NCBI GenBank assembly: GCA_900299315.1
Contig: OMJI01000097.1
Coordinates: 1-51,621, forward strand
DNA from: Verrucomicrobiota bacterium
GTDB taxonomy: Bacteria; Verrucomicrobiota; Verrucomicrobiia; Palsa-1439
Length of the DNA: 51,621 bases
Direction of reading: 5' to 3'
The notes beneath the pieces are model-generated. The model saw only the letters and a list, made by a program, of their open reading frames with translations, was not told the DNA's origin and ran no database searches. Shown in pieces: positions 20,851 to 43,458 of the stretch. Made by a program: the position numbers and the translations under genes. Numbering within the stretch: the first letter of the stretch is position 1; the number at the start of each line of letters is the position of its first letter.

Positions 20851-21771
20851 CTAAACCCCGATTCCGAGGTCTTCGTAGACGGCTGTGTTCAGGGCGAGGT
20901 TGCGCCGATGATGCCGGGGCTCGCCGCACAAACCATCACAAACCCACGCGACCACGAGTTGCCGGTCGGGGTCGGCAAATCCCATGCATGACTGCGCGCC
21001 GCCGTGCCCGAACGTCCGCTCCGAGGCGTACCTGCCGAAGCCGTAAGGAACGGCTTCGACGCCGTACCGGTTCGAGTTCACAATGAAGCCGAGCCCCCAA
21101 TCGAGCTTGTGACGGAACGTCTCGTCGAAGAGTCCCTCCCGGTGTCGCTGGGTAAACAAGCTGAGCGTTGCCGGCTTCAACAGCGTACCGGCCAGCAATG
21201 CTTCGTAGAACTTGCCCAACTCCCGGACCGGCCCGCACGCACCATTACCGGGCTGGCCGGTGTTTTCCCACGGCAATGGAACCGGCGGTGTCCGGAACGT
21301 GTTCCACAAAGCACCGTCTGGTGGCGGTTCGCCGAAACTGGATTGACGCATACCAACGGGCAGGAAAATCTCCTCGCGAACATACCGGCTGAACTCACGG
21401 CCATCGATTTCTTGAATCACGTCGCCCAGCAACCGCCAGTTTGCGACTCGGTCGTAGGCGGCAACGCCGGTGGCGGTGTGTGTGAGGATTCGGCGCAGCC
21501 GGTCGTCCAACGGAAGCTTGCCGCGTTCGTAAAGCTGAGCGATGGCAACAGCCGCTAGCGGCTTCCCTGCGGATTGCCAAGGATACCGGGCATCAGGCCG
21601 GGCAACGCCGACTGCGAAGTCCCCTACCGGCTGGCCGCGAAGACTGACGTAAACTTGGGCCCCGGTGTGGAGACCTTGCTCGATCCCAGCCTGAAGGACT
21701 TGGCGGACGCGCGTCAGCATGGCGCGGTTTTGGGGGAGCCCGAGGAAAAAAACAAGCCGAACCCACATCAA
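20851..21771 (-). CDS. serine hydrolase (beta-lactamase/transpeptidase-like family)
   Basis: SAGK (SxxK) motif followed by LYERGKLPLDD and THT..G; start could be Met at 21720 instead. Confidence 0.65.
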   Translation of the reverse strand: MMWVRLVFFLGLPQNRAMLTRVRQVLQAGIEQGLHTGAQVYVSLRGQPVGDFAVGVARPDARYPWQSAGKPLAAVAIAQLYERGKLPLDDRLRRILTHTATGVAAYDRVANWRLLGDVIQEIDGREFSRYVREEIFLPVGMRQSSFGEPPPDGALWNTFRTPPVPLPWENTGQPGNGACGPVRELGKFYEALLAGTLLKPATLSLFTQRHREGLFDETFRHKLDWGLGFIVNSNRYGVEAVPYGFGRYASERTFGHGGAQSCMGFADPDRQLVVAWVCDGLCGEPRHHRRNLALNTAVYEDLGIGV

Positions 21772-21807
21772 GGGTGGATTCGGCTGAGAGTCAGATTGGC
21801 GAAAATT

Positions 21808-21990
21808 TTACCCGACCATGACACGACGGCCGTGGAAGGAGCCTTCCAGCCGGATCTGGCGACTGTTGATCAGGTCTGCCACGATAAACGCGCTAAGGCG
21901 TTGATTGTGCGTGATTTCATTCACGGTGTTGACCAAGTCCGCCAACGTTGGGCGGCTTCCGCGGGCTGTTTTTGTCGCGTTGCGTTTCAT
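21808..21990 (-). CDS. small hypothetical protein (60 aa)
   Basis: Intergenic ORF with no competing frame, directly downstream of a sigma-54-like promoter; no clear SD (would be near-leaderless). Confidence 0.35.
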   Translation of the reverse strand: MKRNATKTARGSRPTLADLVNTVNEITHNQRLSAFIVADLINSRQIRLEGSFHGRRVMVG

Positions 21991-22003
21991 GGTTTCTCAA
22001 TTA

Positions 22004-22019
22004 AGCAAACCCGGTGCCA
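22004..22019 (-). promoter_or_regulatory. sigma-54 (-24/-12) promoter candidate
   Basis: Minus strand reads TGGCAC-cgggt-TTGCT (plus strand GCAAacccgGTGCCA at 22005-22019); predicted TSS near 21993, 3 nt before ATG 21990. Confidence 0.4.
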
Positions 22020-22079
22020 GCCCGGCGGCTTGACTTGCCAGGGAGTTTCTGGAAAGGTCTTTGCGGCAACGGAACGGTT

Positions 22080-22155
22080 GGGGATGTAGCTCAGTTGGGA
22101 GAGCGCCTCGTTCGCAACGAGGAGGTCAGGGGTTCAAATCCCCTCATCTCCACCA
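22080..22155 (+). tRNA. tRNA-Ala (anticodon CGC)
   Basis: Acceptor GGGGATG/CATCTCC with G3:U70 alanine identity pair, D arm GCTC-AGTTGGGA-GAGC, anticodon stem CCTCG/CGAGG loop TTCGCAA, T arm AGGGG-TTCAAAT-CCCCT, encoded CCA; 76 nt. Confidence 0.9.
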
Positions 22156-22165
22156 ACCTCTCGGC

Positions 22166-23104
22166 ATGACCCCAGATTCACTCTTACCGGCCGCTGACCC
22201 TGACGCGTTGTTGCGCACCATCGGCAACACGCCGCTGATTCCTTTGCTCCGCATCGGCAAGGTGTTTGGCCCCTCTGTCAAAATCTTTGCCAAGGCCGAA
22301 TGGTTCAATCCCGGTGGTTCCGTCAAAGACCGCGCCGCGTACAGAATGATCCGGGCGGCTGAACTTTCCGGTACACTCACGGCCGAAAAAGTCATTCTCG
22401 ATGCCACCAGTGGCAATACCGGCATCGCTTACGCCCTCATCGCCGCCCGGCGCGGTTACCGGTGCAAGCTCCTCATGCCGGCCAACGCGAGCGTCGAACG
22501 CAAAAAGCTCCTCACCGCCTACGGTGCTGAACTTGTCCTGACCGACCCTGCAGAAGGCAGCGACGGCGCGTACTTCGCGGTGCAGGAATTGATCAAGAAG
22601 GAGCCCGACCGGTATTTCTATCCCGACCAGTACGGCAACTCCCAGAACCCGGAGGCCCACTACCACACCACCGGGCCCGAACTCATCAAACAGACCGACG
22701 GCCAGATCACCCACTTCGTCTCCGCCCTCGGCACGAGTGGCACCATGATGGGCACTTCGCGACGACTCCGGGAGTTCAATCCGAACATCCGCATCGTCGC
22801 GGTTCAGCCTGACGGCCCGTTTCACGGACTCGAAGGACTCAAGCACATGGAGACCGCCGCGCACGTGCCGGAGATTTTCAATCCCCGGCAGCCGGACGAA
22901 ACTATCGGCATCGGCACTGAAGCCGCCCAACAGATGTGCCGGCGCATGACCCGGGAGGAAGGCCTATACATCGGCATCAGCGCCGGTGCCGCCATCTGTG
23001 CCGCGCTGCAACTGGCCAGCACACTTAGCGAAGGCGTCATCTGCGCCATCGCGTGCGACGGCGGTTCCCGGTACCAAAGCGAGAAATTCTGGGAGGCAAA
23101 ATGA
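22166..23104 (+). CDS. cysM: PLP-dependent cysteine synthase (CysM-type by context)
   Basis: Start trimmed past the tRNA to ATG 22166; GNTPLIPL, NPGGSVKDR (PLP lysine), SGNTG, GTSGT motifs; followed by JAMM and sulfur-carrier genes. Confidence 0.85.
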   Translation: MTPDSLLPAADPDALLRTIGNTPLIPLLRIGKVFGPSVKIFAKAEWFNPGGSVKDRAAYRMIRAAELSGTLTAEKVILDATSGNTGIAYALIAARRGYRCKLLMPANASVERKKLLTAYGAELVLTDPAEGSDGAYFAVQELIKKEPDRYFYPDQYGNSQNPEAHYHTTGPELIKQTDGQITHFVSALGTSGTMMGTSRRLREFNPNIRIVAVQPDGPFHGLEGLKHMETAAHVPEIFNPRQPDETIGIGTEAAQQMCRRMTREEGLYIGISAGAAICAALQLASTLSEGVICAIACDGGSRYQSEKFWEAK

Positions 23105-23508
23105 AAATCTCCCCCGCCCTGCTTTCCGAAATCCACCAGCATCTTGAAGCCGGTTACCCGCACGAAGCGTGCGGCATGATGCTCGGCAAGGACGGCGTGG
23201 TCACTGAAATCGCCAAGGCCGACAACCAACGCACGGACAGCGCCCACAACCGGTATCTCATCGACCCGCTGGTCTACATGAAAATCGAGCGCAGTGCCGA
23301 CAAGCGCGGGCTGCATGTGATCGGGATCTATCACAGCCACCCGGACGTCGCCGCGCGACCGTCCCAGTTCGATCTCGACCACGCGTTCCCGTGCTTCTCC
23401 TATCTCATCGTATCAGTCTGCCGTGGCAAAGCCGTCGAGTCCAACTCCTGGCTGTTGCGCGAAGACCGCAGTCGATTTGACCAAGAGCCAGTTGATATTT
23501 CGGGCTGA
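23101..23508 (+). CDS. mec: JAMM/MPN+ metalloprotease (Mec-like)
   Basis: ATGA overlap with cysM stop; EACG and HSHPDVAARPSQFD (HxH...S..D) JAMM motif; 135 aa. Confidence 0.85.
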   Translation: MKISPALLSEIHQHLEAGYPHEACGMMLGKDGVVTEIAKADNQRTDSAHNRYLIDPLVYMKIERSADKRGLHVIGIYHSHPDVAARPSQFDLDHAFPCFSYLIVSVCRGKAVESNSWLLREDRSRFDQEPVDISG

Positions 23509-23532
23509 TTCGCTACACTCCCCACCTCGTTT

Positions 23533-25005
23533 ATGGCGATTACCATCACAGTTCCAACGGCCCTCCGACGCTTTGCCGGCAATCAACCCTCGGTCGAGGT
23601 TGCCGGCCACACGATCCAGGAAATCCTCAAGGACCTGATCCGGCAGCATCCCCAACTTGGCCAACACTTGTACGACAAGGACGGCAAGCTCCGCAATTTT
23701 GTGCGGATCTACGTGAACGACGAGGATATCCGCGCCACCGGCGACCACACTCCGGTGAAGGAAGGCGATGAGATCGCGATTGTGCCCTCGATTGCCGGTG
23801 GGGTTGAGCCGATCATCAAGGATCGCGCCAAACTGACCAACGACGATATCAAGCGCTATTCCCGGCATCTCATCCTCCCGGAAGTCGGCATGGAAGGCCA
23901 AGAACGCATCAAGGCCGCGAAGGTGTTGCTCATCGGCTCCGGTGGGCTTGGCTCACCGCTCGCGCTCTACCTGACTGCGGCCGGTGTGGGCACGATTGGG
24001 ATGGTGGAGTTCGACACCGTCGACTTCAGCAATCTGCAACGCCAGATTCTTCACTTCACACCGGACGTCGGTAAACACAAGCTCCAGAGCGCCGAGGAAA
24101 AGCTCAAGGCAATCAACCCGAACCTGAAGTTCATTCCACACAAGACCAAGATCACCAGCGACAACGCGCTCGACTTGATCAAGGACTACGACCTCGTCAT
24201 CGACGGCACCGACAATTTCCCGACCCGGTACCTCGTCAACGACGCCTGCGTGATGCTGAAGAAGCCAAACGTGTACGGCAGCATTTTCCGTTTCGAAGGC
24301 ATGGCCAGTGTGTTCGCACCGCACCTCGGCGGACCATGCTACCGGTGCTGGTACCCGGAACCGCCGCCGCCCGGCATGGTGCCGAGTTGCGCCGAGGGCG
24401 GAGTGCTGGGCGTCATCTGCGGCATCATTGGCAACATTCAAGCGAATGAGGCGGTGAAGCTCATCATCGGCAAAGGCAAGCCGCTCATGGGCCGGTTGCT
24501 CCGGTTTGATGCGATGGATATGAGCTTCCGGGAATACAAGATCCCGAAGGATCCGAACTGCCCGGTCTGCGGTAAGAATCCGACCATCACAAAGTTGATC
24601 GACTATCTCGAGTTTTGCGGAATTGGTCGCGGCGAAGCCGGCGGCACATCCGGTGACTCGATTGTTGAGGAGGACGAAGGCCTCGGCCCGGACGACATCA
24701 GCGTCGAGACCTTGAAGAAGATGCGCGACGCCAAACAGGATTTCATCCTCGTGGACGTCCGCAATCCCGACGAGTTCCAGATCAGCCAGATCGAAGGCTC
24801 GGTCAAGCTCCCTCTGCCGGACCTTCCGCAACGGTTCCAAGAACTGCCGAAAGACAAACTGCTAGTCGTCCACTGCAAGATGGGCGGCCGGAGCGCCCGG
24901 GCGGTGAACTTCTTGAAGCAGCAAGGCTATTCGCAGGTGAAGAACGTCGCCGGCGGCATCAACGCTTGGGCGGAACGCATCGACCCCGACATCCCACAGT
25001 ACTAA
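23533..25005 (+). CDS. CysO/MoaD/ThiS-like beta-grasp fused to MoeB/ThiF-type E1-like adenylyltransferase and rhodanese domain
   Basis: Residues 1-90 end in ...EIAIVPSIAGG (sulfur-carrier C-terminus, nt 23533-23802) and continue in frame into RYSRHLILPEVG, GSGGLG nucleotide loop, CxxC pairs (CYRC, CPVC) and a rhodanese CKMGGRS active-site loop. Confidence 0.85.
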   Translation: MAITITVPTALRRFAGNQPSVEVAGHTIQEILKDLIRQHPQLGQHLYDKDGKLRNFVRIYVNDEDIRATGDHTPVKEGDEIAIVPSIAGGVEPIIKDRAKLTNDDIKRYSRHLILPEVGMEGQERIKAAKVLLIGSGGLGSPLALYLTAAGVGTIGMVEFDTVDFSNLQRQILHFTPDVGKHKLQSAEEKLKAINPNLKFIPHKTKITSDNALDLIKDYDLVIDGTDNFPTRYLVNDACVMLKKPNVYGSIFRFEGMASVFAPHLGGPCYRCWYPEPPPPGMVPSCAEGGVLGVICGIIGNIQANEAVKLIIGKGKPLMGRLLRFDAMDMSFREYKIPKDPNCPVCGKNPTITKLIDYLEFCGIGRGEAGGTSGDSIVEEDEGLGPDDISVETLKKMRDAKQDFILVDVRNPDEFQISQIEGSVKLPLPDLPQRFQELPKDKLLVVHCKMGGRSARAVNFLKQQGYSQVKNVAGGINAWAERIDPDIPQY

Positions 25006-25008
25006 GCC

Positions 25009-25785
25009 GTGGCCATTCATCCCACAGCGATTATCAGTCCCCAAGCCGAACTCGACCCTTCGGTCGAAGTCGGGCCTAACGTGGTGATCGAGACGGGCGT
25101 GAAGATCGGGGCGAGGACACGGATTTGGGCCAACGCCTACATCGCCACCGGCACGGAGTTAGGGTGCGACAATGAAGTGCATATGGGCGCGGTGTTGGGC
25201 CATGAACCGCAAGACTTGGGCTTCAAGCGCGAGACGCGGAGTTTCCTGAAGGTGGGCGACCGGAATGTATTCCGGGAGTATTGCAACGTGCATCGCGGGA
25301 CGCAGCCCGAGAGCGCGACCATTATCGGCCACGATAACTACCTGATGGCCACGAGCCACGTCGGCCACAACAGCGTCATCGGCAACAACGTCATCCTCTG
25401 CAACTGCGCACTGGTGGCCGGTCACGTCCACGTGGGCGACCGGGCGTTCATCTCGGGCGGGGTAGTAATCCACCAATTCATGCAAGTCGGTCGGCTGGCG
25501 ATGCTATCCGGTAACTCCCGCGTCTCGATGGATGTGCCGCCCTTCCTGCTAGCCGCCGAACGAAACGAGATCCACGCCATCAATATCGTCGGGCTGAAAC
25601 GCGCGGATTTTTCCGCGAGCGCGATTGCCGAGATCAAGAAGCTCTTCAAACTCTTCTACCGGTCTTCCCAGAATTTCTCTGAAGCACTGGCCCAAGCAGA
25701 TCAATTCACCACGCCAGAGGCCAAAGAGTTCTTGGATTTCGTCCGCGGTTCCCCAAACGGCATCTGCCCACCGGCTCGCAACTAG
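25009..25785 (+). CDS. lpxA: acyl-ACP--UDP-N-acetylglucosamine O-acyltransferase
   Basis: GTG start; left-handed beta-helix hexapeptide repeats and LpxA-type C-terminal helical domain (IHPTAIISP..., GHDNYLMATSHVGHN). Confidence 0.9.
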   Translation: MAIHPTAIISPQAELDPSVEVGPNVVIETGVKIGARTRIWANAYIATGTELGCDNEVHMGAVLGHEPQDLGFKRETRSFLKVGDRNVFREYCNVHRGTQPESATIIGHDNYLMATSHVGHNSVIGNNVILCNCALVAGHVHVGDRAFISGGVVIHQFMQVGRLAMLSGNSRVSMDVPPFLLAAERNEIHAINIVGLKRADFSASAIAEIKKLFKLFYRSSQNFSEALAQADQFTTPEAKEFLDFVRGSPNGICPPARN

Positions 25786-26801
25786 TAAATCTCCGTGTGT
25801 TCGGGGCTGTGGATCGGGTAGGTAAACATCTCCACCGCGCGGAATCCTTCCGGTGGTTTTACACTTTGGTCGCCCAACCGGTTGAGTGACTCTGCCGCTA
25901 CCGCTCGGACAAAACCGCTCTCGTCGCCGGCAACCTTCCGCAAGTCCGGCACAGCCGCTTTGTCACCGATCAACCCGAGCGCGTACGCTGCCGCGCCCCG
26001 CACATGGTCGTCAGAATCCTGCAGCGCGGCCACAAGCTTGTCGCGGGCTGAGTAGGCCTTGATCTTGCCCAGCGAGAGGGCGGCTTCCCCGCGGACGATG
26101 GGATCTGTATCCGCCAGCGCATTTTGGAGCACCGGGATGTTTTCCCGAGCCGGGTACTTTGCCAGCAGATACATCACGATCCGGCGGGTGTCTGCGTAAG
26201 GATGCTGGGCTAATGCACGAACACGTTCCGGCACAGTCTGGTCACGCAATGCCTCGATGGCCAACAACGCAGAGCGTTCACGCACGGAGTTGTTGAGGTC
26301 GGTCAGCGCATTGATCGCGACCGGCAATGCCGATCGGTCGCCAAGAAATGCCAACCCCCAAAGCGCACGAAAGCGGGCTACCGGCGCAGTGTCTTCCTGC
26401 ACGACCTTGATGATGTCCGGGAGAATAATCCTATCGCCAATCGTGCAAAGTCCCCAAGCCGCAGCAGCTCGAACCCGGTCGTTCTCGTCGCGCAGTACCG
26501 GGCGGAGTGATTCGATTACCGGACGCTCTTTGTATGCCCCGAGATTCCAAGCAGCCAAAGCGCGGACCTCAGGACTGGGATCACGAATCGCCTTCAGAAG
26601 AAGGTCCCGGGCGGCTGGCAGGTTGAGTGATTTTAGCTCACGTACAGCTTGGACGCGCTGGGATTCATCCTTCGACGCCAACCATCGTTCCAAGCGCTGC
26701 AGTCGCCGGTCGCTGGTCGTGGCCGGGGATTGCTGACCGAATGCCAGAGTCGCTGTGGAGAGGACAAACGCGGCCAGCAGTCCTGTGTGCATGAAGTTCA
26801 T
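25782..26801 (-). CDS. secreted HEAT-repeat protein (339 aa)
   Basis: Signal peptide then repeated D...VR..AA.ALG.....A.P.L motifs (PBS-lyase-type HEAT repeats). Confidence 0.8.
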   Translation of the reverse strand: MNFMHTGLLAAFVLSTATLAFGQQSPATTSDRRLQRLERWLASKDESQRVQAVRELKSLNLPAARDLLLKAIRDPSPEVRALAAWNLGAYKERPVIESLRPVLRDENDRVRAAAAWGLCTIGDRIILPDIIKVVQEDTAPVARFRALWGLAFLGDRSALPVAINALTDLNNSVRERSALLAIEALRDQTVPERVRALAQHPYADTRRIVMYLLAKYPARENIPVLQNALADTDPIVRGEAALSLGKIKAYSARDKLVAALQDSDDHVRGAAAYALGLIGDKAAVPDLRKVAGDESGFVRAVAAESLNRLGDQSVKPPEGFRAVEMFTYPIHSPEHTEIY

Positions 26802-26833
26802 GCGAGCAGCGCGTCAACCCTGCCCCGACCGAA

Positions 26834-27937
26834 CTACTTCTTCTTGTTACCGGGGTTGCCGGGCCCTGTGCCGGTACCATCGTTCACTGGCGGATTGCCG
26901 GGAGGCTGCGGGTCTTGGCCATTGCCCAAACCGTTATTCCCTTTTCCACCACCGCCGCCGGTGGAACATGCGCCGAGTGTGTCGCCGTGGGCGAGATGCG
27001 ATTGGACGGCTGATTCAGCGACGTCGATGGTCTTGCCGTTGTGGCAAATGGTCACTTTGCGTTGGGCGCCGTGACCGGTAATTTCCTTCGTGGCCCGAAC
27101 CACGGTGGCTGCCGGCACGGCGGCCGCCGTGATTACTTGGTTGTTTTCCACGCGAACAGAGCTGCTCTCGAGGGCGTCGCGGAGTGGTTTACCGGATGAA
27201 TGCGACGCAAAGGTGTCGGCCATTGACTTCGCCATATCGCGCCATGCGGCCACGACCATACCGACCTGTTCGGCCGTATCGTTGTCTTCCGTGAAGAAGC
27301 TAATCTCGTTCTTCCACTCGCCAAAGTTCAACTCACCTTTCGCCACGACGCTCTTCACCCGCGTTCGCAGGCTGCCGGGAAGGTATTTACCGGCGTTGGG
27401 CATGACGGCCACCACATACAACGGATCCACCGTCATCTCGCGTAGGAACGTCAAATCTCCGCCCAAACCCGCCTCGATCGCGCGTTTCGAAGCGGCCACC
27501 ATCTTGGGATCACCCAAATAGCTGACCCGGTCATAAACCAGACCAAGGATGTTCTCGGCAGAATGGTAGATGTCATCACCAACGCGGGCGTGAATGGTTC
27601 CGTCAGGGTTCAAAACCCCGGCGGCCTGCAATTGGGAATCCCGGAAAAGTTGAACCACCAAGTCTGTCACCTTGCCGGCTTTTTGGCGGTACATGACAAC
27701 CATCACCGAGGGAGTGTCGGGTTCCTTGGAAGCATCCGGTGATTCCAGCAATGCCGCTACCGCGGGAGCCAGCGCGGAATTCTCCGGTAGAGATTGCCGC
27801 AAGAGCGCCACGAAATTGGCCTGCTGACCGGGAACCTCTTGGATCTTGGTGTTAGCTGTCCCCGCTTGGACGATTCCAACCGTAGCCAAGACGCCAGAAG
27901 CCAAGACTGCCAACCCCATCAAAATCTTCTTTTTCAT
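26834..27937 (-). CDS. secreted hypothetical protein with Gly/Asn/Pro-rich C-terminal tail
   Basis: Start trimmed to MKKKILMGLAVLASG signal peptide; distant paralog of the 30021..31055 product; tail GGGGGKGNNGLGNGQDPQPPGNPPVNDGTGTGPGNPGNKKK. Confidence 0.7.
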   Translation of the reverse strand: MKKKILMGLAVLASGVLATVGIVQAGTANTKIQEVPGQQANFVALLRQSLPENSALAPAVAALLESPDASKEPDTPSVMVVMYRQKAGKVTDLVVQLFRDSQLQAAGVLNPDGTIHARVGDDIYHSAENILGLVYDRVSYLGDPKMVAASKRAIEAGLGGDLTFLREMTVDPLYVVAVMPNAGKYLPGSLRTRVKSVVAKGELNFGEWKNEISFFTEDNDTAEQVGMVVAAWRDMAKSMADTFASHSSGKPLRDALESSSVRVENNQVITAAAVPAATVVRATKEITGHGAQRKVTICHNGKTIDVAESAVQSHLAHGDTLGACSTGGGGGKGNNGLGNGQDPQPPGNPPVNDGTGTGPGNPGNKKK

Positions 27938-28051
27938 AGTCACCCCCAGATGCAAATCCGGTGCCATCAACTGAAGTACTTTCACCGATGAGAAAGGGCC
28001 TGTCAAATGGCAAAGGCTTCTGCCGGTGGGCCAAAAAAGTACCTGAAAAGG

Positions 28052-30058
28052 CTAGGGAGTACCGGCAGGGGATTTCCGATTGCGAGCGGCCACGCGCTCT
28101 TTTCGTTCGCTGATCTTTGCCAACGCCTCGACAGCTGCATCGCGAACCAAGCTGTTTTCGTCATTGACGGCTTTGTTGAGCGTATCGACGGTCGACGGGT
28201 CAGCCAACTCGCCGAGCGCCCAAGCGACTGACGCGCGGACTCGCGCTTCGTTTTCTTTCATCAAACGCACATTTTCAGGGACAGAGCCCGCAATTACGCC
28301 CTCTTCAAGGTCACGGGTGGGCACGGCGGCGGTGTAGTAGGGACGAACCGCTTGTTCAAGTGGATCAACTGCGCTGGGATCACGAATTCTTCCAAGAGCA
28401 ACGGCCGATTCCGCACGCAGCCCAGGGTCTTCGGACTTTAGCCCCTTTTGCACGATTGTGCCGACTGCGTCCGGTGACCGCAATGCACCCAAGGCCTGCA
28501 CGACCTGAATCTTCTCCTCAATCTGTTTCTGCCGCACAACCTCCGGGAGGAGTTTCGTATCCGTACCGATTACCAGTCCCTGCTCATCCGATGCGTCTCC
28601 GAGCCGACGTTCGCCGGTAAGAACGGTCAGCAAGGGAGCCACCGCCGTACGATCACCCAACTTGCCAAGGGCTTCAGCGGCCGCACCGCGAACATAACCG
28701 TTCGAATCACGAAGCATAGCAATCAGCTTGGGTACAGCATCATGATCCCCGAGATCGCCAAGTGCTCGCGCCGATGCCGCACGTACATGAGGGTTGGCAT
28801 CGGCGATTTTCTCTTGCAGAGCTTTCGTGCCGCTGCGCTGCTGCAGACCGCGCAATGCTGACACGGCAGTCAAACGAACGTTGGGGTCCGAGTCTTCCAC
28901 GGCCTCCACGATCGCCGGTACCTGTGCGTCGCCGCCAATCGCCCCGAACACCTCCACGATTTTCTGTCGTACTTCTGGATTTTCACTATGCCGATACTCC
29001 GCGAGTTGCGGCAATGCGCTGACAGCCTTGGCTGTCACAATGGCGCGGGCTGCGTGGAACCTGACATCCCGGCTTTCGGCCACAACCGCCTTCACCAGCG
29101 CCGCAACGGCGGCTTCATCGGCGGATGTCGCCAGCGCATCTGCCGCCCGGTCGCGTACAAGGGCATACTCATCATCCTGCAACTTGCTGATAAATGCCTG
29201 GGTGACTTGCGGCCGCTTCTCGGGGTCCTGTCTCACCACTCCCGAAAGCGACATAATAGCCATCGCCCGGACGTGCCAGTCGGAGTCCTTCATGGCATCG
29301 AGCAAAGCGGGTATCGAAGCAGGATCCTTGAGATCACCCATCGTCATGGCCGCAGCGCTTCGCACCAACACACTCGGGTCATGGAGCATCGGGATGATTG
29401 ACGGGACAGCGGCTGGAGTTCCACAGGTTCCGAGCGCCCGGGCAACTTCCATTCGAACGTGCTCGTCGTCATCCCCCAACGCATCGACGAGTTGGGACTC
29501 GACGCTCTTATCTCCCACCCGACAAAGTGTGCCCGCGACGAGGGCGCGAATCTTCGCGTCCGAATTCTTCAGCCCAGTAGCATTGGCGGAAATGGGAGTA
29601 AGACTTTTCAACCGGACCAAAGCCCCGGCGGCAGTCAGACGGACGGTTTCGGTTTTGTCTTCTAGCATCTTCCAGAGAGCAACTGCACCGTCGGATTCAC
29701 CCAAGTCGCCCAGGACCATCGCTACCAATGTCCGGACTTCCACCCGCTCGTCTTCGGCAAGCGCCGAGACTTTCACAACTGACCGCTCCTCATTCTGGAG
29801 GGACGATTGAATAAACTGAACTGCCTCGACTGGATAAAGCCGATCAAAACGCAATCTCTCGTAGGCGCCTGCCAGCTTCGGGTCGCGAGGTGCCGGGGAG
29901 TCAATGCCCCAAGCAGGGGCCAAGAATGCCGAGGTCAGCCCCAGAAGTGTACCGGCCAATAGACTTTTCTTAGACGACAAATGCTTCCTCCCGGACACAA
30001 ATCCAGTCACAGCACCATTTTCAACTCGGATAGCCCGGGCCACGATGGATTCGACCAA
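28052..30058 (-). CDS. secreted HEAT-repeat protein (about 650 aa)
   Basis: About 15 HEAT-like repeats (D.D..VR..AA.ALG.LGD..AVP.L); start uncertain (track start overlaps upstream gene by 38 nt; GTG at 29998 is possible). Confidence 0.8.
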   Translation of the reverse strand: MVESIVARAIRVENGAVTGFVSGRKHLSSKKSLLAGTLLGLTSAFLAPAWGIDSPAPRDPKLAGAYERLRFDRLYPVEAVQFIQSSLQNEERSVVKVSALAEDERVEVRTLVAMVLGDLGESDGAVALWKMLEDKTETVRLTAAGALVRLKSLTPISANATGLKNSDAKIRALVAGTLCRVGDKSVESQLVDALGDDDEHVRMEVARALGTCGTPAAVPSIIPMLHDPSVLVRSAAAMTMGDLKDPASIPALLDAMKDSDWHVRAMAIMSLSGVVRQDPEKRPQVTQAFISKLQDDEYALVRDRAADALATSADEAAVAALVKAVVAESRDVRFHAARAIVTAKAVSALPQLAEYRHSENPEVRQKIVEVFGAIGGDAQVPAIVEAVEDSDPNVRLTAVSALRGLQQRSGTKALQEKIADANPHVRAASARALGDLGDHDAVPKLIAMLRDSNGYVRGAAAEALGKLGDRTAVAPLLTVLTGERRLGDASDEQGLVIGTDTKLLPEVVRQKQIEEKIQVVQALGALRSPDAVGTIVQKGLKSEDPGLRAESAVALGRIRDPSAVDPLEQAVRPYYTAAVPTRDLEEGVIAGSVPENVRLMKENEARVRASVAWALGELADPSTVDTLNKAVNDENSLVRDAAVEALAKISERKERVAARNRKSPAGTP

Positions 30059-31055
30059 TCCCCTTGGAAAGTGCCTGCACGAACTTCGGCAAGGCGCGCT
30101 CGATTACATCGCCAGGCATCATCATCCGACTAATCACAGTTGGCCCTTCCGCGCGAATCTGCGCCCGCGCTAATTGTTGGAGAGCAACCTCCGACTGCTC
30201 GGCGCCAGCGTACCGGACACGACCCACCCCGACCGCCATCATCCGCATGTCAGAAAACAACTGTGCGAGCTCCTCGGCGCGTTTCTGGTCATAGCTCAAT
30301 GCAACAACTTCAGCCCGGGCCTCATCCATCGAAATCTTGCCCTTAATCAGCATGGCTGCGAGATATGGCCGAAACTGGTCCGTCAGCAACAGCCCCGGTT
30401 CGGGTACAACGGCGATGAACGACACCGGGTCGTGGAGGTAGTCTTGAATGACCGGGTATCGGTTATTGAGAACAGCCTCGATGATTTCGCGCTGCTTCTT
30501 CTCTGTCTCGCGGTTGGCGAGAACCAGAATCTCACGACCGGCAAGAGAAAGTGTGGACTGGCCGATAGCGAAGAATCGATCTGGTAACTGCGATTTCCAA
30601 TAGCCCTCCGAACTGAACGCCGGTAGCTTCTCAGGCATCAGGTTCCCGAACACATGAATGGCCACATCACGCAACTCGCCTTCTGCCCGGTAGGTCACCA
30701 ACATCATGGCCACGTCGCCTTGCGCGAGTTTCGGGTCAACGCCAAGCGCTTGCGTCAGTGCTTCCTTGATCTGCTCGAGCAAGGGTGGATTGTCGCCAAA
30801 AGCCATCTGGAGGAACGCCGGGGAGAACTCCTTGCGGGCCGGTGCCTTGACGATCATCTCCTGCCGGCGGACAGCTTCCTGAACGACTTTGCGAACTTGG
30901 TTCGTTTCCAGCACGAGCCTTTTCGCTCGTTCGGTTACATTGAGCGCCAAGACGCCCGCCGCGAGAACGAGCACCACCAGCAGACTCCAAACCACGACAT
31001 TTGCTTTGGTGCCCTTCTTCTTAACGATTGTGGTCGTTTTTCCGCTATTTGCCAT
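30021..31055 (-). CDS. membrane-anchored hypothetical protein (344 aa)
   Basis: Basic N-terminus, one TM helix (VVVWSLLVVLVLAAGVLAL), large extracytoplasmic domain; shares segments with 26834..27937 product (e.g. AMMLVTYRAEGELRDVAIHVF vs VMVVMYRQKAGKVTDLVVQLF). Confidence 0.7.
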   Translation of the reverse strand: MANSGKTTTIVKKKGTKANVVVWSLLVVLVLAAGVLALNVTERAKRLVLETNQVRKVVQEAVRRQEMIVKAPARKEFSPAFLQMAFGDNPPLLEQIKEALTQALGVDPKLAQGDVAMMLVTYRAEGELRDVAIHVFGNLMPEKLPAFSSEGYWKSQLPDRFFAIGQSTLSLAGREILVLANRETEKKQREIIEAVLNNRYPVIQDYLHDPVSFIAVVPEPGLLLTDQFRPYLAAMLIKGKISMDEARAEVVALSYDQKRAEELAQLFSDMRMMAVGVGRVRYAGAEQSEVALQQLARAQIRAEGPTVISRMMMPGDVIERALPKFVQALSKGIGRIHRGPGYPS

Positions 31056-31073
31056 GTTCGTGCTCCCTCATGC

Positions 31074-31712
31074 CTACTGCGGGGCGATCGAGGCGCCGCC
31101 TTGTCCAAACTTGATCGGCTCATCTTCCCCTAACAACTCCCAACCGGTGTCATAGCCAATCTTATCGGCCACCGATCGCGCAGTCCGGAACGCATCAAAA
31201 CTATCATCTCTAACGAGAAAAGCAATATATTGACTTTGCTTGTCAAGCTGCGCTAGCGCACTCTGGAATAGACCGCTAGGGGCCTGAAGTTGCGTAACCG
31301 CTTCCCCCTTGGAACCCGGTTTAGGCTGCAAGGCCATCACACCCACTAGGAGATACTTGGGGTCAACCGAGTAATCCTGATTTCCAATCTCTTCCCCTTG
31401 AATCGCTTTCAAGAATTGCGAAAGGTCGCCACTACGCACACCGGGATTCATCTGTGACAACTTCTTGGCTACTTGTGAATCGAGCGCATCCTTGTTCACG
31501 TAAAAGACCTCGTGATTCCGGCACTCAAAAAACACAGGGGTCTTGTTCGTTGGCACCGCCCGGGGCGTCGGTTTGAAAACGGGGATCTTCAAAGCCTCTT
31601 GAATGGTGATCAACAACGCAAAGAACAACGCGGCCGTCACCACAGTCACGATGTCGCAGAACGAGACGATCAACATCTCCGGCTCGCCCTTCTTGATTCG
31701 TCGGCGGGGCAT
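31074..31712 (-). CDS. ExbD/TolR-like membrane protein (divergent, 212 aa)
   Basis: Short basic N-terminus, single TM (LIVSFCDIVTVVTAALFFALLIT) then periplasmic domain; assignment rests on architecture and position after a MotA/ExbB gene. Confidence 0.55.
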   Translation of the reverse strand: MPRRRIKKGEPEMLIVSFCDIVTVVTAALFFALLITIQEALKIPVFKPTPRAVPTNKTPVFFECRNHEVFYVNKDALDSQVAKKLSQMNPGVRSGDLSQFLKAIQGEEIGNQDYSVDPKYLLVGVMALQPKPGSKGEAVTQLQAPSGLFQSALAQLDKQSQYIAFLVRDDSFDAFRTARSVADKIGYDTGWELLGEDEPIKFGQGGASIAPQ

Positions 31713-31717
31713 AGTCC

Positions 31718-32215
31718 TTAATCCTCCGATACCTGAAGCGCCTTCGTGGCCTCATCCCAATTGACGCGGAAATCCGCATCAACCGCATCGTAGCCGACGT
31801 CGACAGTTCGCTTTGCGATGCGATTCCGAATGGCCCGGTAGTACTTCAACGACTTGGGACGCACCATCACGACTACGTATTCTTCCGCGCTATGCGCCTC
31901 GACCTTATCGAGCAACTGGTCCACCGGATTGCCAGGGCGCTGTAACTCCTCCCACGAGACATGCTTCGCACCGGGGTAGATGGTAACGTTATTCTCACCG
32001 CAATCAATGTACGAGGGAATCTTGGCATTCTCGACGTTGCCTTTGCCTTCGTACAACCCGGCAAACGCCACGACACGCTTAGCCTTCGGGTTGACCGCGA
32101 TGCGCATGACGATGACGACCATGATCAGGGAGATCAACTTCATCACGATCGCCATGATCGAGAGAAACGGTTCGACGTTGATGTCGATTTTCTCGTATGC
32201 CTTGCGACGCGCCAT
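31718..32215 (-). CDS. ExbD/TolR-like membrane protein (165 aa)
   Basis: IDINVEPFLSIMAIVMKLISLIMVVIV resembles the ExbD INVTPLIDV...TM signature; periplasmic C-domain. Confidence 0.65.
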   Translation of the reverse strand: MARRKAYEKIDINVEPFLSIMAIVMKLISLIMVVIVMRIAVNPKAKRVVAFAGLYEGKGNVENAKIPSYIDCGENNVTIYPGAKHVSWEELQRPGNPVDQLLDKVEAHSAEEYVVVMVRPKSLKYYRAIRNRIAKRTVDVGYDAVDADFRVNWDEATKALQVSED

Positions 32216-32230
32216 GGTTCCTCCGCGGCG

Positions 32231-33961
32231 TTACAGGCTCTCGTCGGCGCGGGCTTCCTGGAACACCACCTTGCGCGGCTTGGACAACTGCTTGAGCAAC
32301 TCGTCGCTCGTGTTGAGGTGACTCCGGATGTTCGCCAGCGTCTGCCGGAACTCCTCGGAACTACCCACCTGACGGAGCGTGCTTTCCATGGATTGCGTGG
32401 TGCGCAACACCTTGTCGATTTCGTTGCCGAGTTTCGTGACCGCCTCCAACTGATCCACCAACGCCTGCGCCGAGTTCCTAATCTGCTCGGAGTAACGCTG
32501 GCTGGCGGAGTCGAGTGCCTGCACGGACTTCGTGAAGTTTTCGGACAGACGGACCGACAACTGGTTGAAGTCGGAAACCATCTTCTCCCAGCGTTGGATT
32601 TCCTTGCGATCGAGTTCCTGAACTGCCTCGACGTACTTGTCGTGAGCGTCGCTCATGGCCTCGTTCTGTTCCTTGCCCAGCGTGGCAATCTGCTCCGTCA
32701 ACTCCTCAAACTTCTCCGCCAGTTTCTGCTCGTTGCGGGCAAACACTTCGAGGTTCTTCTCCTGCGTCTTGCGGAACTCATCCATCATCTTCGCGGCACC
32801 GGAATTAAAATTACCGGCCACGCCTTCGAGCTTGCCGCCAAGCTGTGAGCCCAACTCGCTCACCCGTCGTTCGTAATTGGTCTGGAACTCCTCGTACTTC
32901 TGATTGATCGCATCTGCAGCCTTCGTAACGGCGCGCGTGAAAACTTCCTCATACCGGTCGGGATTGGGTAACCGCCGGAATCCAGCATCGATTGCTTGGG
33001 CCAACTCTTCCACCGGGAATTTCGTCTGTGCCTCCAAGCCGGACAAACCCTCACGGATAGCATTGGTCAACTCCTCAACAGGGAACTTGCCCACCGGACC
33101 ACCACCACCACCGCCGCCGCCACCACCGGAAGGCATGCGCGACAAGAGCCGGTCTTCCACCAGCTCATCGATCTCGGCGAGCACCTCTTCCTCTTTTCGT
33201 TCCGCACCCAAGCTGGGGAACGCAGCCATACCAGCGGTCAACAGACCCAGCAGCGTGCAGTAAAACGCCACCGCCAAGCCTTCGGTGATGTGACCGACTT
33301 GGACTTTGATGCCTTCCGCCGTGACGCCGGCACCCGCCAAGAATTCAGCGAAGCCACCGATACCAGCCGCGACACCGAACACCGTACCAACGAACCCGAG
33401 CAGCGGCATCGCCCAGATGAACAACCGGTTCTTCCGGTAGGACGAATCGGACGCCACCGCGTCCAAGCCGGCCTGTTCGCGGGCGTACTCAGCCGTCCGC
33501 TCAAAATCCCGCGTGTTGATCCACATCGCCAATACGCGCGCGACGCGCGTCAGACCGAGACTGTTCGTGAGATTGGGGTTGGACTTGATTCGCTCGTAGA
33601 CCGAGATCAACTCATCCTCATTGGTGAAGTCGAGATTGTCCGGCAACTGAATCTCCCCAATCATCTGCTTCTCCTTCTTGATGCGCGATATCTTGAGGAT
33701 GATGTTCAGGGTCGACAGCGCCCACACAAACAACGTCGTGCCTTGGAAGATCAGACGTTCGATATTAAATGTGTGCTCGCCTTTCCGATTGCCCAAGATC
33801 AAGTCGCGGACAAACCAGTTTGGACCCACATACAAGATCGCGCAGAAGATCGCCACGAACGCAAGCGCCCCGCCGATCATGACCATTGTCGGGACTTCCG
33901 TGTGGGGACGCTCGTGGGTTGGAAACTCAACTTTCTTGAAATCAGAGACTTCAGTAGCCAT
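32231..33961 (-). CDS. MotA/TolQ/ExbB-family proton channel protein with poly-Gly linker and long coiled-coil C-terminal extension
   Basis: TM helices plus MotA_ExbB core (WAMPLLGFVGTVFGV...ITEGLAVAFYCTLLGLL), then GGGGGGGGGG (nt 33098-33127), duplicated KFPVEEL motif and about 270 aa of heptad-like helical sequence. Confidence 0.85.
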   Translation of the reverse strand: MATEVSDFKKVEFPTHERPHTEVPTMVMIGGALAFVAIFCAILYVGPNWFVRDLILGNRKGEHTFNIERLIFQGTTLFVWALSTLNIILKISRIKKEKQMIGEIQLPDNLDFTNEDELISVYERIKSNPNLTNSLGLTRVARVLAMWINTRDFERTAEYAREQAGLDAVASDSSYRKNRLFIWAMPLLGFVGTVFGVAAGIGGFAEFLAGAGVTAEGIKVQVGHITEGLAVAFYCTLLGLLTAGMAAFPSLGAERKEEEVLAEIDELVEDRLLSRMPSGGGGGGGGGGPVGKFPVEELTNAIREGLSGLEAQTKFPVEELAQAIDAGFRRLPNPDRYEEVFTRAVTKAADAINQKYEEFQTNYERRVSELGSQLGGKLEGVAGNFNSGAAKMMDEFRKTQEKNLEVFARNEQKLAEKFEELTEQIATLGKEQNEAMSDAHDKYVEAVQELDRKEIQRWEKMVSDFNQLSVRLSENFTKSVQALDSASQRYSEQIRNSAQALVDQLEAVTKLGNEIDKVLRTTQSMESTLRQVGSSEEFRQTLANIRSHLNTSDELLKQLSKPRKVVFQEARADESL

Positions 33962-34068
33962 GGCGAGAATACTCCTCTCCTAAGGATTGCGGTGGTTGCT
34001 TATTGTTCGGTTGCGCCTGCATCATGACAAACGCCAGCTGCACGTGACTACCCTCACAGTGCGCGCCG

Positions 34069-34096
34069 ATAATATCGTCCGAGTTGTGCTTGTCAA
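34069..34096 (-). promoter_or_regulatory. sigma-70-type promoter candidate for the MotA-like cluster
   Basis: Minus strand TTGACA (34096-34091), 16-nt spacer, TATTAT (34074-34069), about 100 nt upstream of ATG 33961. Confidence 0.35.
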
Positions 34097-42670: not shown

Positions 42671-43458
42671 AAATCTTTGAGCGCTGCCCGGATTTCCTTT
42701 TCGTCGAGCAACCGGAACTTCGCCGACGCCGTCTGCGTCCGGTCGAGCACGGCCGCCTCAACGTGCCGGGTTTTCAGATGATCCCGGAGATGCCGTACAG
42801 GATCGAAATCTTCCGGCAACTTGGCCTCGCGCTCGTCCTCCTGTTTACCGCGCTCGGCAATCTGCATCCCCACCGCCCACGTCCGCGCCGCCAACCGCAA
42901 CGCGTCGTCGAGCGACCGCTTCGAGTTCCCGTTGTGCTCAATGAGATACTGCAGCATCGCCTTTTCCGCGGGACGAGTCCCGGCCACCACGTCGAACGGT
43001 TCGCGCATCTCGATCTCGCTGCGGCCATACGAGCCGTCGTAGTCGAGTTTCACAATCACGTCCCGGTCCGCGTCGTCCCCGAGCTCGGCGAGCACCATCT
43101 TCACGATGAACGGCGCGTTGAACACCTGCTCGAACGCCGTCTTCAGGGCCGGGCTCAACCCGAAATTTACCAAGCGCCGCAACGCGACATCCGCCACGGC
43201 CCGGTTGAACCCCTCGATGTGCGCCAAGTCAATTGCCGCCAGCCGCATCCGCTCGATGTCGGCCGGGTGGCCGAGCGCCGCGAACGCGATCCGGTCGTAG
43301 ATCTCAAAAATCTTCCGCGTCTCCCGGCTCACGGTCAGCAACAGCAAGCCGTCGGCGTAATTCAACAACACAATCGGACTGCCGCGCGCAAGCTGGTCCT
43401 CGATGTACTCGCGCCGGTTGGCAATCGCCTCGACCCAACGATAGGGTTCCTCGGTCAT
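42667..43458 (-). CDS. prcA: 20S proteasome alpha subunit (bacterial type)
   Basis: 263 aa with PrcA-like sequence (IFEIYDRIAFAALG, DYDGSY); start overlaps prcB stop. Confidence 0.85.
   Translation of the reverse strand: MTEEPYRWVEAIANRREYIEDQLARGSPIVLLNYADGLLLLTVSRETRKIFEIYDRIAFAALGHPADIERMRLAAIDLAHIEGFNRAVADVALRRLVNFGLSPALKTAFEQVFNAPFIVKMVLAELGDDADRDVIVKLDYDGSYGRSEIEMREPFDVVAGTRPAEKAMLQYLIEHNGNSKRSLDDALRLAARTWAVGMQIAERGKQEDEREAKLPEDFDPVRHLRDHLKTRHVEAAVLDRTQTASAKFRLLDEKEIRAALKDL

Follow-up and report, generated by a model that had tools for sequence, protein, structure and literature searches.

We propose, at about an even chance of being right, that seven genes of the window (the whole 51,621-nucleotide stretch of DNA analysed here) encode a machine that spans the cell envelope, draws on the proton-motive force and serves a housekeeping role there; its core would be a very divergent representative of the 5:2 MotA/ExbB/TolQ-type motor family. 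The cluster most likely functions as a trans-envelope force or signal transducer, and nutrient uptake, motility and mobile phage defence all seem to us less likely than mechanical maintenance or sensing of the envelope state. The encoded proteins are predicted to assemble into a complex and to conduct protons. The original prediction of an undescribed proton-driven envelope system is partly supported.

An open reading frame check of the window confirmed seven tightly packed genes, all on the minus strand, as are the features located below. They encode A (32231-33961, 576 aa), a divergent MotA/ExbB/TolQ-type channel with a long cytoplasmic tail; B1 (31718-32215, 165 aa), an ExbD-like protein with a single membrane helix; B2 (31074-31712, 212 aa), its ExbD-like paralogue; C (30021-31055, 344 aa), anchored in the inner membrane; D (28052-29980, 642 aa), a periplasmic HEAT-repeat solenoid; E (26834-27937, 367 aa), a secreted paralogue of the C periplasmic domain; and F (25782-26801, 339 aa), a secreted HEAT-repeat protein. 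Hydropathy supports the predicted membrane anchoring and secretion, with one N-terminal membrane helix each in B1, B2 and C, and signal-peptide-like N-termini on D, E and F. The longest open reading frames of D (28052-30058) and E (26834-28006) probably overstate the genes: the true start of D is likely the TTG at 29980, preceded by GGGAGGAAG, which gives 642 aa, and that of E the ATG at 27937, which gives 367 aa, a length that, like those of the other genes, agrees with the gene calls in a public collection. The gaps from A to F measure, in order, 15, 5, 18, 40, 114 and 32 nt; of the range first reported, the upper value of 114 nt stands, whereas the lower value of -38 nt arises only with the longest frame of D, whose likely start leaves 40 nt. 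Between the stop of recO and the start of A, 143 nt apart, lies a promoter-like site (TTGACA-16-TATTAT, 34069-34096, 11 of 12 matches). It is no more than a consensus match; the region has 4 sites of this kind where chance alone would give 2.9. At the other end, the stops of F and the convergent lpxA overlap by 4 nt.

The gene arrangement recurs far beyond chance. In a synteny check over non-redundant related loci with A at least 50% identical, A was accompanied by B1 in 49 of 49, by B2 in 45 of 45, by C in 37 of 37 and by D in 33 of 33, the last counted in loci whose downstream DNA was long enough. Within one clade of uncultured Verrucomicrobia, A-B1-B2-C-D forms an invariant set of genes, and independent contigs from metagenomes and MAGs show the arrangement dozens of times. 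Co-conservation of all seven genes, as first envisaged, holds in full for these five and in part for E and F (16/29 and 11/27 loci, respectively); E-F is an optional, lineage-specific duplicate of the C-D module. The chromosomal position is fixed: in every Verrucomicrobial locus with flanks, across which A is 50 to 74% identical, the operon lies between recO and lpxA, and the DUF502-recO and lpxA-thiF flanks are kept. All seven families are still present in the divergent locus L017, where E-F lies on the opposite strand, and on one contig (L045) C and D are missing downstream of B2. Since an A-B1-B2 core without C or D exists in distant Verrucomicrobia and in cyanobacteria, C-D is an add-on to that core.

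The motor labels given to A, B1 and B2 hold only as divergent membership. Three strong membrane segments are seen in A by hydropathy (residues 27-45, 180-208 and 225-247), the last two forming a channel hairpin (residues 179-252, 33206-33427) whose sole Pfam match is PF01618 (E = 0.0019, 18.4 bits). The window A itself falls below the Pfam threshold, whereas its orthologue P0085 scores 27.5 bits and the cyanobacterial orthologues, tied to A by its family HMM at E = 5e-64, exceed the PF01618 threshold at 29.8 and 25.2 bits; many of the 213 A homologues, almost all from Verrucomicrobia MAGs, carry precomputed PF01618. The best profile match for the hairpin is TolQ: hhalign of A with E. coli TolQ gives a probability of 65% and aligns the invariant pore threonines T193 (33383-33385) and T236 (33254-33256) with T145 and T178, against 0.8% for E. 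coli MotA. No ExbB, TolQ, MotA, ExbD or TolR chain in the PDB was retrieved by sequence with the A, B1 and B2 profiles. Flagellar MotA-MotB shares the channel superfamily by PF01618, but the MotB plug and OmpA-like domain are missing here and the window holds no flagellar genes.

B1 and B2 are paralogous (hhalign probability 97%), divergent ExbD-like proteins. Against E. coli ExbD, B1 reaches a probability of 62% at E = 7e-5 with the DINVxPF motif aligned; no window protein matches the Pfam ExbD model, and the Anabaena orthologue of B1 has PF02472 as its sole Pfam match (E = 0.0036). ExbD Asp25 aligns with both the invariant Ser19 of B1 (32159-32161) and the invariant Asp20 in the membrane helix of B2 (31653-31655), such that the essential membrane aspartate is kept in B2 only, a rule that also holds in distant relatives. 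The periplasmic domain of B2 contains an insertion of about 70 residues, and its AlphaFold2 model (pLDDT 82.7) found no significant match in the PDB with Foldseek, TolR ranking 23rd at E = 0.66.

The remaining proteins fall into two paralogous modules, each pairing a protein of unassigned family with a HEAT-repeat protein, as originally suggested. HEAT repeats in D and F are strongly matched by PF13646 (E = 4e-88 and 4e-47), and the C-terminus of F, PPEGFRAVEMFTYPIHSPEH, is conserved, also in L017. C comprises a membrane helix (residues 20-40), a low-confidence linker, an invariant membrane-proximal motif, EFSPAFLQMAFGDNPPLL (30777-30842), an alpha/beta periplasmic domain and an invariant C-terminus, GRIxRGPGYPS (30024-30068), in a model with pLDDT 77.8. 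It is the best-conserved protein of the set, 85-88% identical where A is about 59-68% identical, and belongs to a family with only 71 clusters among 1.84 billion representative proteins; it has no Pfam or NCBIfam match and no PDB fold match at E <= 0.001. C and E are paralogous (BLASTP E = 3e-12; the C-family HMM finds E at 8e-19), and the domain they share, which has no Pfam, NCBIfam or significant PDB match, is a novel periplasmic domain. E also carries a conserved Cys/His motif and ends in a tail rich in Gly, Asn and Pro (26837-27070), which is conserved in L017. One metagenomic protein, P0404, naturally joins the C/E domain to HEAT repeats in a single chain; this fusion and the synteny suggest that the motor is coupled to the HEAT-repeat proteins.

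In the machine that we propose, five A subunits would surround one B1-B2 pair, and proton passage via B2 Asp20 would cause A to turn or change conformation. C would dock on the motor by its membrane helix and invariant membrane-proximal motif, placed as TolA or TonB would be, including in gene order (channel, ExbD-like, anchored protein), while its periplasmic domain and basic C-terminal peptide would hold the HEAT solenoid of D, which may extend towards the cell wall or outer membrane. E and F would provide a soluble second copy of the C-D output or anchor module. On the cytoplasmic side, the five conserved A tails may form a helical bundle coupling the motor to a putative cytoplasmic partner, like the ZorA tail.

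The tail had been described as a coiled coil; a long tail is indeed present, but it is no mere coiled coil, being as conserved as the channel within a ZorA-like architecture. A variable linker (residues 253-292, 33086-33205) with a run of ten glycines, the least conserved part of A (0.54), leads into a 284-residue helical cytoplasmic tail (residues 293-576, 32234-33085) with a column conservation of 0.71-0.82 against 0.82 in the channel. Its motifs include two FPVEEL repeats, AIDAGFRRLPNPDRYEEVF and a C-terminal LSKPRKVVFQE, and its weak PDB matches are to apolipoprotein, chemoreceptor and the tail of a 696-aa protein with a MotA/TolQ/ExbB domain.

This architecture brings into play anti-phage defence of the Zorya kind, which we consider unlikely, where the motor would sense envelope perturbation during infection, C, D, E and F would replace the peptidoglycan-binding domain of ZorB, and the tail would signal to a cytoplasmic effector encoded elsewhere. 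In ZorA, too, the last membrane helix of a MotA/ExbB-type channel runs into a long, mostly helical cytoplasmic tail, within a ZorA5B2 motor (PMC11946911), and in both systems the pore has a polar residue and the partner subunit an essential Asp. Weak matches of the A tail to ZorA tail models (E = 8e-7 to 1e-3) are the only repeated PADLOC matches of A, and true A-B1-B2 homologues lie on two cyanobacterial plasmids. In Anabaena cylindrica PCC 7122, type III-B cmr genes and a CARF-HEPN gene are found immediately upstream of the trio, with a viperin gene nearby; in Microcystis NIES-2481, the gene immediately upstream encodes an HKD+Snf2 helicase that matches ZorD as well, and SLATT, methylase, HNH and GIY-YIG genes lie around the trio. 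In annotated records, relatives occur in defence islands only; the original prediction missed both these homologues and the ZorA-like architecture. The membrane part of A and B1 are moreover mosaic or fast-evolving relative to flanking genes, a pattern more typical of conflict systems.

However, the Verrucomicrobial locus occupies one chromosomal site between housekeeping genes wherever flanks are available, and C is very strongly conserved. The operon encodes no nuclease, helicase or other effector and lacks ZorC, ZorD, ZorE, ZorF and ZorG as well as MotB; PADLOC finds nothing in B1, B2, C or E, and the NCBIfam ZorA model scores A at 18 bits against a cut-off of 190. Where Zorya has one MotB-like ZorB, two distinct small ExbD-like partners are found here, only one of them with the Asp and neither with a peptidoglycan-binding domain, which is absent from the whole cluster. 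The A tail is also shorter than the roughly 500 residues (223-729) of E. coli ZorA, and the glycine-rich linker argues against rigid torque transmission of the ZorA type. No relatives were found on viral contigs or, besides the two cyanobacterial records, in the plasmid collection, and the variable spacer before lpxA holds no recognisable defence genes.

The housekeeping context also invites comparison with the Tol system, whose operon runs tolQ-tolR-tolA-tolB-pal-cpoB. That the cluster is the Tol-Pal counterpart of this lineage, with the motor energising C as a TolA analogue that organises contacts of the outer membrane or the cell wall in division or lipid homeostasis, and with D as a CpoB-like scaffold, seems to us distinctly unlikely. 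The order of channel, ExbD-like, anchored and periplasmic proteins parallels the tol operon, C is laid out like TolA (membrane helix, linker, conserved motif, globular domain), both systems have a periplasmic alpha-solenoid partner (TPR in CpoB, HEAT here), and the vertically inherited locus adjoins lpxA and, in L003, L005 and L017, has lpxD, fatty-acid or heptosyltransferase genes close by. Nevertheless, as had been claimed, a scan of the seven proteins and of 30 other large open reading frames of the window found no domain of the TonB, TolA/TolB/Pal, OmpA-like or flagellar kind; neither a TolB propeller nor a Pal/OmpA-like lipoprotein is part of the cluster. TolA domain III is absent, and the membrane helix of C lacks the SHLS/His motif by which TonB and TolA dock; A has an invariant Val at the position of TolQ Glu173; the B subunits are heteromeric; and the conserved cytoplasmic tail has no TolQ equivalent. 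A contig whose taxonomy is not established (L016) bears a TolB-like and OmpA-like gene pair together with an E-like gene, and a canonical Tol system may therefore coexist with the cluster.

An ExbB-ExbD1-ExbD2 energiser of outer-membrane uptake with C as an unconventional TonB is very improbable. One ExbB gene followed by two ExbD genes is a common arrangement in Ton systems, and the general layout of one channel gene plus ExbD-like genes is shared here; the B1 N-terminus matches the ExbD motif DINVTPFIDVM, and some homologues bear the JGI label 'biopolymer transport protein ExbB/TolQ' or 'ExbD'. Yet Ser replaces the essential Asp in B1, all seven proteins are without a TonB C-terminal domain, proline-rich spacer or SHLS motif, no TonB-dependent receptor occurs among the scanned window frames or beside the related loci, and neither the long conserved tail nor the HEAT partners have a role in Ton systems. 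Equally improbable is a motor of surface motility or adhesin movement like AglRQS-Glt or GldLM: AglQ/AglS is a heteromeric TolR-like pair and the Glt complex includes TPR proteins, to which B1/B2 and the large periplasmic solenoids may be likened, and upstream in L006 there are SprB-domain proteins, and downstream in L001 a 3777-aa surface-type protein. These neighbours, however, lack conservation across loci, neither Glt, Gld nor type IX secretion genes were detected, and no sequence match to AglR or GldL was found.

[quoted passage not shown] Both are uncharacterised motor clusters of Planctomycetes and Verrucomicrobia with a non-identical TolR-like pair, an alpha-solenoid repeat protein and an anchored protein, other than TonB, proposed as force transducer. 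C, however, has neither a vWA domain nor the SHLS/His motif, the repeat protein here is HEAT rather than TPR and is encoded downstream, and the long conserved A tail is absent from that paper's description. As the original prediction held, the databases and literature that could be searched contain no entry or paper describing the combination of motor, C/E proteins and HEAT proteins. The cluster, in which a very divergent motor would act with two protein families without assigned function and with periplasmic HEAT proteins, matches no described machine.

The seven minus-strand genes at window 25782-33961, ordered A, B1, B2, C, D, E and F, encode a real, conserved and apparently undescribed variant of the 5:2 motor theme. 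Hydropathy gives the 576-aa A strong membrane segments at 27-45, 180-208 and 225-247 and a weaker one at 71-92, with its C-terminal 284 residues cytoplasmic under either topology. It gives one N-terminal helix each to the ExbD-like B1 (165 aa) and B2 (212 aa) and to the membrane-anchored C (344 aa), and signal-peptide-like N-termini to D, E and F, of which D and F are HEAT solenoids and E is secreted and paralogous to the C domain. All seven open reading frames were confirmed where the original prediction had placed them. Its gaps of -38 to 114 nt held at the upper end but not at the negative one: with the likely starts of D (TTG 29980, with GGGAGGAAG just before it, giving 642 aa) and E (ATG 27937, giving 367 aa), the gaps are 15, 5, 18, 40, 114 and 32 nt. 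Gene calls in public collections agree with the 367-aa E and with the lengths of A, B1, B2, C and F. A promoter-like site, TTGACA-16-TATTAT (34069-34096), lies in the 143-nt gap that precedes A; on this side the cluster is flanked by recO and a DUF502 gene, and at the other end the convergent lpxA is overlapped by the stop of F.

The contig carries other gene sets around this cluster. Pup-proteasome systems are best known in Actinobacteria, and their occurrence on a Verrucomicrobial contig is notable: in a minus-strand cluster at window 41258-48152, two genes each for Pup-ligase-family proteins (470 and 516 aa) and proteasome subunits (263 and 255 aa) accompany one for a 559-aa AAA ATPase of the Mpa/ARC type that has OB domains. 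On the plus strand, at window 21574-25005, the gene for a 347-aa PLP-dependent enzyme precedes that for a 490-aa ThiS-ThiF-rhodanese fusion, with a JAB-domain gene between the two in the related locus L006; together they resemble a pathway in which a sulfur-carrier protein serves the synthesis of cysteine or a thiocarboxylate. Further genes at window 684-3499, 6576-8066, 8079-11192 and 15884-17836 encode a sigma-54 response regulator alongside a histidine kinase, a thiol-disulfide transporter of the DsbD type, a 1037-aa protein built from immunoglobulin-like repeats and a patatin-like phospholipase of the cyclic-nucleotide-binding kind.

To follow the gene set across genomes, 76 loci were gathered through exact-protein look-ups and through scans of genomes and metagenomes, scored by tblastn and cleared of duplicates; the genome-collection scan with A alone gave at least nine close loci, and the metagenome scan with an alignment gave 59. 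Where A is at least 50% identical to that of the window, B1 was found in 49/49 loci, B2 in 45/45, C in 37/37, D in 33/33, E in 16/29 and F in 11/27, the denominator for each gene being the loci with enough downstream DNA to hold it. Where A is 42-46% identical, B1 and B2 are each present in 4/4 loci, and the counts for C, D, E and F are 0/4, 0/3, 0/2 and 0/2. In L017, C is just 33% identical, yet all seven families are kept, with E-F on the opposite strand. These synteny counts rule out chance adjacency and, together with L017, define A-B1-B2-C-D as the conserved unit; the seven-gene cluster of the original prediction therefore stands for its first five genes, and E-F is an optional second module. 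The DUF502-recO and lpxA-thiF flanks recur in the same loci, so that the locus is vertically inherited at a fixed position. By source name, the loci are Verrucomicrobia MAGs in almost all cases, with peat, soil and lake among the environments sampled, and two short contigs labelled Schlesneria and Anaerolinea are probably mis-binned. One redundant contig, L045, is an exception, with A, B1 and B2 followed by unrelated ORFs in place of C and D (L045 2900-6711); its A gene has an identical stretch in common with one other contig, and the lack of C and D could be strain variation or a chimeric assembly.

The stretch from D to E or lpxA differs in length among genomes (L069 16376-17308; L033 15784-20000; downstream of D in L024 and L032). 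Among the ORFs of this variable D-lpxA spacer no defence genes were recognised, and the one Pfam match was an IS1595-family transposase, carried by L069. The G+C content is 0.555-0.59 over window 26001-34000, against mostly 0.60-0.66 elsewhere on the contig (0.57 at 48001-50000), and given the age and synteny of the locus, amino-acid composition may be the cause, and not a transfer in recent times. Similarity within the operon is mosaic when window A (32231-33961) and B1 (31718-32215) are compared with L011, L015 and L049 and with L007 and L012. In the genomes that C (85-88%), D, lpxA and thiF place nearest, B1 (about 50%) and the A channel diverge most, and the segments encoding the A membrane part and B1 are discordant with the flanking genes. 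P0085, an orthologue of A, is 63% identical to it in the channel versus 83% in tail residues 401-500, and two allelic types of A channel and B1 co-vary in 20/20 distinct motif combinations. The mosaic similarity and the co-travelling allelic types suggest recombination within the operon.

Full-length A has no Pfam MotA_ExbB match. Its last two helices alone have PF01618 as their sole match, at 18.4 bits (E = 0.0019) against a threshold of 22.9 bits; P0085 scores 27.5 bits, and orthologues from two cyanobacterial plasmids pass the threshold at 29.8 and 25.2 bits, with the family HMM linking them to A at E = 5e-64. By sequence, A falls within the MotA/ExbB/TolQ channel superfamily as a divergent member, an assignment that rests on the orthologues because the window hairpin itself scores below the PF01618 threshold. 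T193 and T236 of A are invariant among 32 sequences and, in a profile-profile comparison (hhalign) with E. coli TolQ (probability 65%), align with the TolQ pore threonines T145 and T178; an invariant Val stands at the position of TolQ Glu173. The same comparison with E. coli MotA stayed at noise level (probability 0.8%). The tail, separated from the channel by a glycine-rich, poorly conserved linker, is not the generic coiled coil that the original prediction had implied, since its column conservation is 0.71-0.82 versus 0.82 in the channel; it carries the motifs FPVEEL (twice), AIDAGFRRLPNPDRYEEVF and LSKPRKVVFQE.

B1 and B2 have no match in Pfam, NCBIfam or PADLOC, and the periplasmic domains of the two are paralogous (BLASTP E = 3e-8; hhalign probability 97%). 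Against E. coli ExbD, hhalign gave B1 a probability of 62% (E = 7e-5), through a DINVxPF motif, and B2 one of 1% (E = 0.045); the B1 orthologue from Anabaena has PF02472 as its sole Pfam match, at 17.8 bits versus a threshold of 25.4 bits. The B2 model (pLDDT 82.7) has the ExbD/TolR order of strand-strand-helix-strand-helix-strand around an insertion of ~70 residues, and a Foldseek search of this model against the PDB placed TolR (5by4) at rank 23 (E = 0.66), with no match at E <= 0.001. Profile searches of PDB sequences with A (including a broadened alignment), B1 and B2 returned only helical-bundle and coiled-coil proteins, with no motor subunit for A and no ExbD or TolR chain for B1 or B2. 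In tblastn searches with E. coli ExbB, ExbD, TolQ and TolR there was no match among L001-L076, and matches in the window were at chance level only, including B1 (E = 0.085) and the A channel (E = 0.57).

Asp25 of ExbD is an essential residue. Its counterpart in B2, Asp20 (31653-31655), is invariant in 42 sequences, and B1 has an invariant serine, Ser19 (32159-32161), at this position and is thus without a membrane Asp. The same rule, Ser in B1 and Asp in B2, holds throughout the family, in L001, L059, L062 and L068 and in the cyanobacterial L077 and L078. Some loci carry a second motor set, in which L062 has Pro instead of Ser and the tail-less set of L001 has Asp in neither subunit. A conserved disulfide between B1 Cys72 and B2 Cys64 was considered and rejected, the B2 cysteine being missing in the cyanobacterial orthologues.

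No protein of the set is as conserved as C. A membrane-proximal motif and a basic C-terminus, GRIxRGPGYPS, are invariant, as is a Trp in the membrane helix, which has no His; the protein carries a EFSPAFLQMAFGDNPPLL motif. In its model (pLDDT 77.8) a linker of low confidence joins the membrane helix to an alpha/beta domain. A Foldseek search of the 344-aa protein against the PDB gave no match at E <= 0.001, the best being TP0453 (E = 6e-3, TM about 0.2) and then ARPC2, and no function was read for C or B2 from such non-significant matches. Pfam at lenient thresholds found no recurring family among 40 C homologues, with one stray TonB_2 match (E = 0.2), and a C profile run against 1.84 billion representative proteins gave 71 clusters only. 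One metagenomic protein, P0404, fuses the C/E domain to HEAT repeats, offering independent evidence that the two halves of each unknown-plus-HEAT module work together. The C-terminus of E (window 26837-27070) has a conserved ICHxGKTIxV...HLAHGDxLGxC segment and then a Gly/Asn/Pro-rich tail, NGLGNGxDPQPPGNPPVNDG, which is kept even in the distant L017 copy (L017 9702-11087) and matches nothing in Pfam or NCBIfam.

Domain scans bore out the absence of TonB, TolA/TolB/Pal and MotB from the cluster, and the Zorya effector and vWA transducer were likewise not found. The statement that the cluster fits none of the known Ton, Tol or Mot systems also holds, as the defining partners of Ton, Tol-Pal and MotAB were looked for and not found. 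A TonB domain is missing from all seven proteins, as are a proline-rich spacer and an SHLS membrane helix, and no TonB-dependent receptor occurs among the large window ORFs scanned or in the gene tables of the related loci. For Tol-Pal, the cluster lacks WD40/PD40 and OmpA domains, and a TolB-like and OmpA-like pair occurs on an unrelated contig, L016. For MotAB, no MotB plug, OmpA-like domain or flagellar gene was found in the cluster or the scanned window ORFs. With its channel and long cytoplasmic helical tail, A has a ZorA-like architecture. PADLOC ZorA models match the tail only (E = 8e-7 to 1e-3), a kind of match that helical-repeat composition can give, and the NCBIfam ZorA score of A is 18.4 bits versus a cut-off of 190. 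The cyanobacterial A orthologues match PADLOC ZorA1 in the channel region (E = 1.7e-8), from which no specific ZorA kinship is drawn: PADLOC offers no rival MotA-type models, so that the match does not separate ZorA from other MotA-type channels. As candidates for ZorB, B1 and B2 lack an OmpA-like domain and a PADLOC match, and the Anabaena B1 orthologue matches ZorB1 weakly, in its N-terminus only (E = 0.0046). No match to ZorC/ZorD, ZorE or ZorF/ZorG was found in the window cluster. The patchy, mobile, defence-island context of Zorya is seen only in the two cyanobacterial plasmid homologues, whereas the window clade has its cluster fixed between recO and lpxA.

ZorA-ZorB (PMC11946911) is nearest in architecture, TolQ in channel sequence, and in gene-cluster logic the nearest described case is the PVC cluster of TPR, tolQ-like, two tolR-like and vWA genes (PMC12204202). 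As in the latter, two non-identical tolR-like genes come after a single tolQ-like gene in our cluster; unlike there, C has no VWA Pfam match, no vWA fold in Foldseek and no His in its helix. Full-text literature searches found no paper joining such a motor with HEAT proteins.

Homologues of A were found by tblastn on two annotated plasmids, pANACY.03 of Anabaena cylindrica PCC 7122 (L077; trio at NC_019773.1 11586-14165) and p1 of Microcystis aeruginosa NIES-2481 (L078; trio at 41267-43867). The two genes downstream of each are homologues of B1 and B2 (HMM E = 5e-64 for A, 2e-32 for B1 and 1e-40 for B2), and the family assignments are anchored by the cyanobacterial A passing PF01618 and by ExbD being the sole Pfam match of the Anabaena B1. 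Immediately upstream of the Anabaena trio are cmr2-cmr3-cmr4-cmr6 (type III-B) and a CARF-HEPN gene, with a viperin gene downstream; the Microcystis trio has an HKD+Snf2 helicase, a partial ZorD match, immediately upstream, and SLATT, nucleotidyltransferase, methylase, HNH and GIY-YIG genes in its surroundings. Judged by gene content, both contexts are defence islands, a link that was not visible when the cluster was first read. The trios may serve as a membrane-motor accessory of CRISPR or helicase immunity, of which we found no description. Second motor sets also occur next to the main one in distant Verrucomicrobia: a tail-less A' (277 aa) with B1' and B2' at L001 7875-9887, a divergently oriented set with a shorter A tail at L062 1209-3812, and a lone tail-less A' paralogue at L017 1605-2465. 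These sets, and the absence of C, D, E and F from both cyanobacterial loci, argue that A-B1-B2 is an old module and C-D a Verrucomicrobial addition.

An A5:(B1B2) complex would conduct protons through Asp20 of B2, and C would dock on it in a TolA/TonB-like position; alternatively, B2 could form a homodimeric axle with B1 as an accessory. C would also hold D, E-F would be a soluble duplicate of the C-D module, and the five A tails would bundle together and communicate with a partner in the cytoplasm. For the window cluster, a core envelope role is more likely than defence, because it occupies a fixed housekeeping position, C is very strongly conserved, the cluster holds no effectors, and relatives were absent from viral contigs and, among plasmids, were limited to the two cyanobacterial records. 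That the cluster is itself a defence system stays a serious rival because the cyanobacterial trios sit in defence islands and the A membrane part has evolved in mosaic fashion together with B1. A further reading, which we consider improbable, is that A-B1-B2 forms an unrecognised 'two-faced' class of 5:2 motor, marked by a conserved ZorA-like cytoplasmic tail and a heterodimeric ExbD-like axle with the proton-binding Asp in one subunit, and recruited twice. In cyanobacteria it would have come to assist immunity based on type III CRISPR and on helicases; in Verrucomicrobia it would be a chromosomally fixed device, in which the C/E domain and HEAT solenoids replace the peptidoglycan-binding domain as anchor or antenna, and the window cluster, as part of the core genome, would sense envelope breach and signal inward through the tail.

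Flagella, Ton uptake, Tol-Pal, gliding and type IX secretion, and Zorya immunity all run on proton-driven 5:2 motors. According to recent surveys, further output modules of such motors await discovery (PMC12204202). The cluster adds two partner families that lack known relatives, namely the C/E domain and the ExbD variant represented by B1/B2. It also brings in periplasmic HEAT solenoids, which may act as output or anchor proteins, and a ZorA-like tail outside any defence island. Its carriers are mostly uncultured, which limits immediate experiments. An axle with an apparently single proton-binding Asp bears on current alternating-aspartate models of rotation and, if the 'two-faced' reading is true, would naturally test whether one Asp is enough for a 5:2 motor to run. 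The cyanobacterial trios adjoining type III-B CRISPR/CARF-HEPN genes or an HKD-Snf2 helicase offer a concrete, testable link between envelope motors and immunity.
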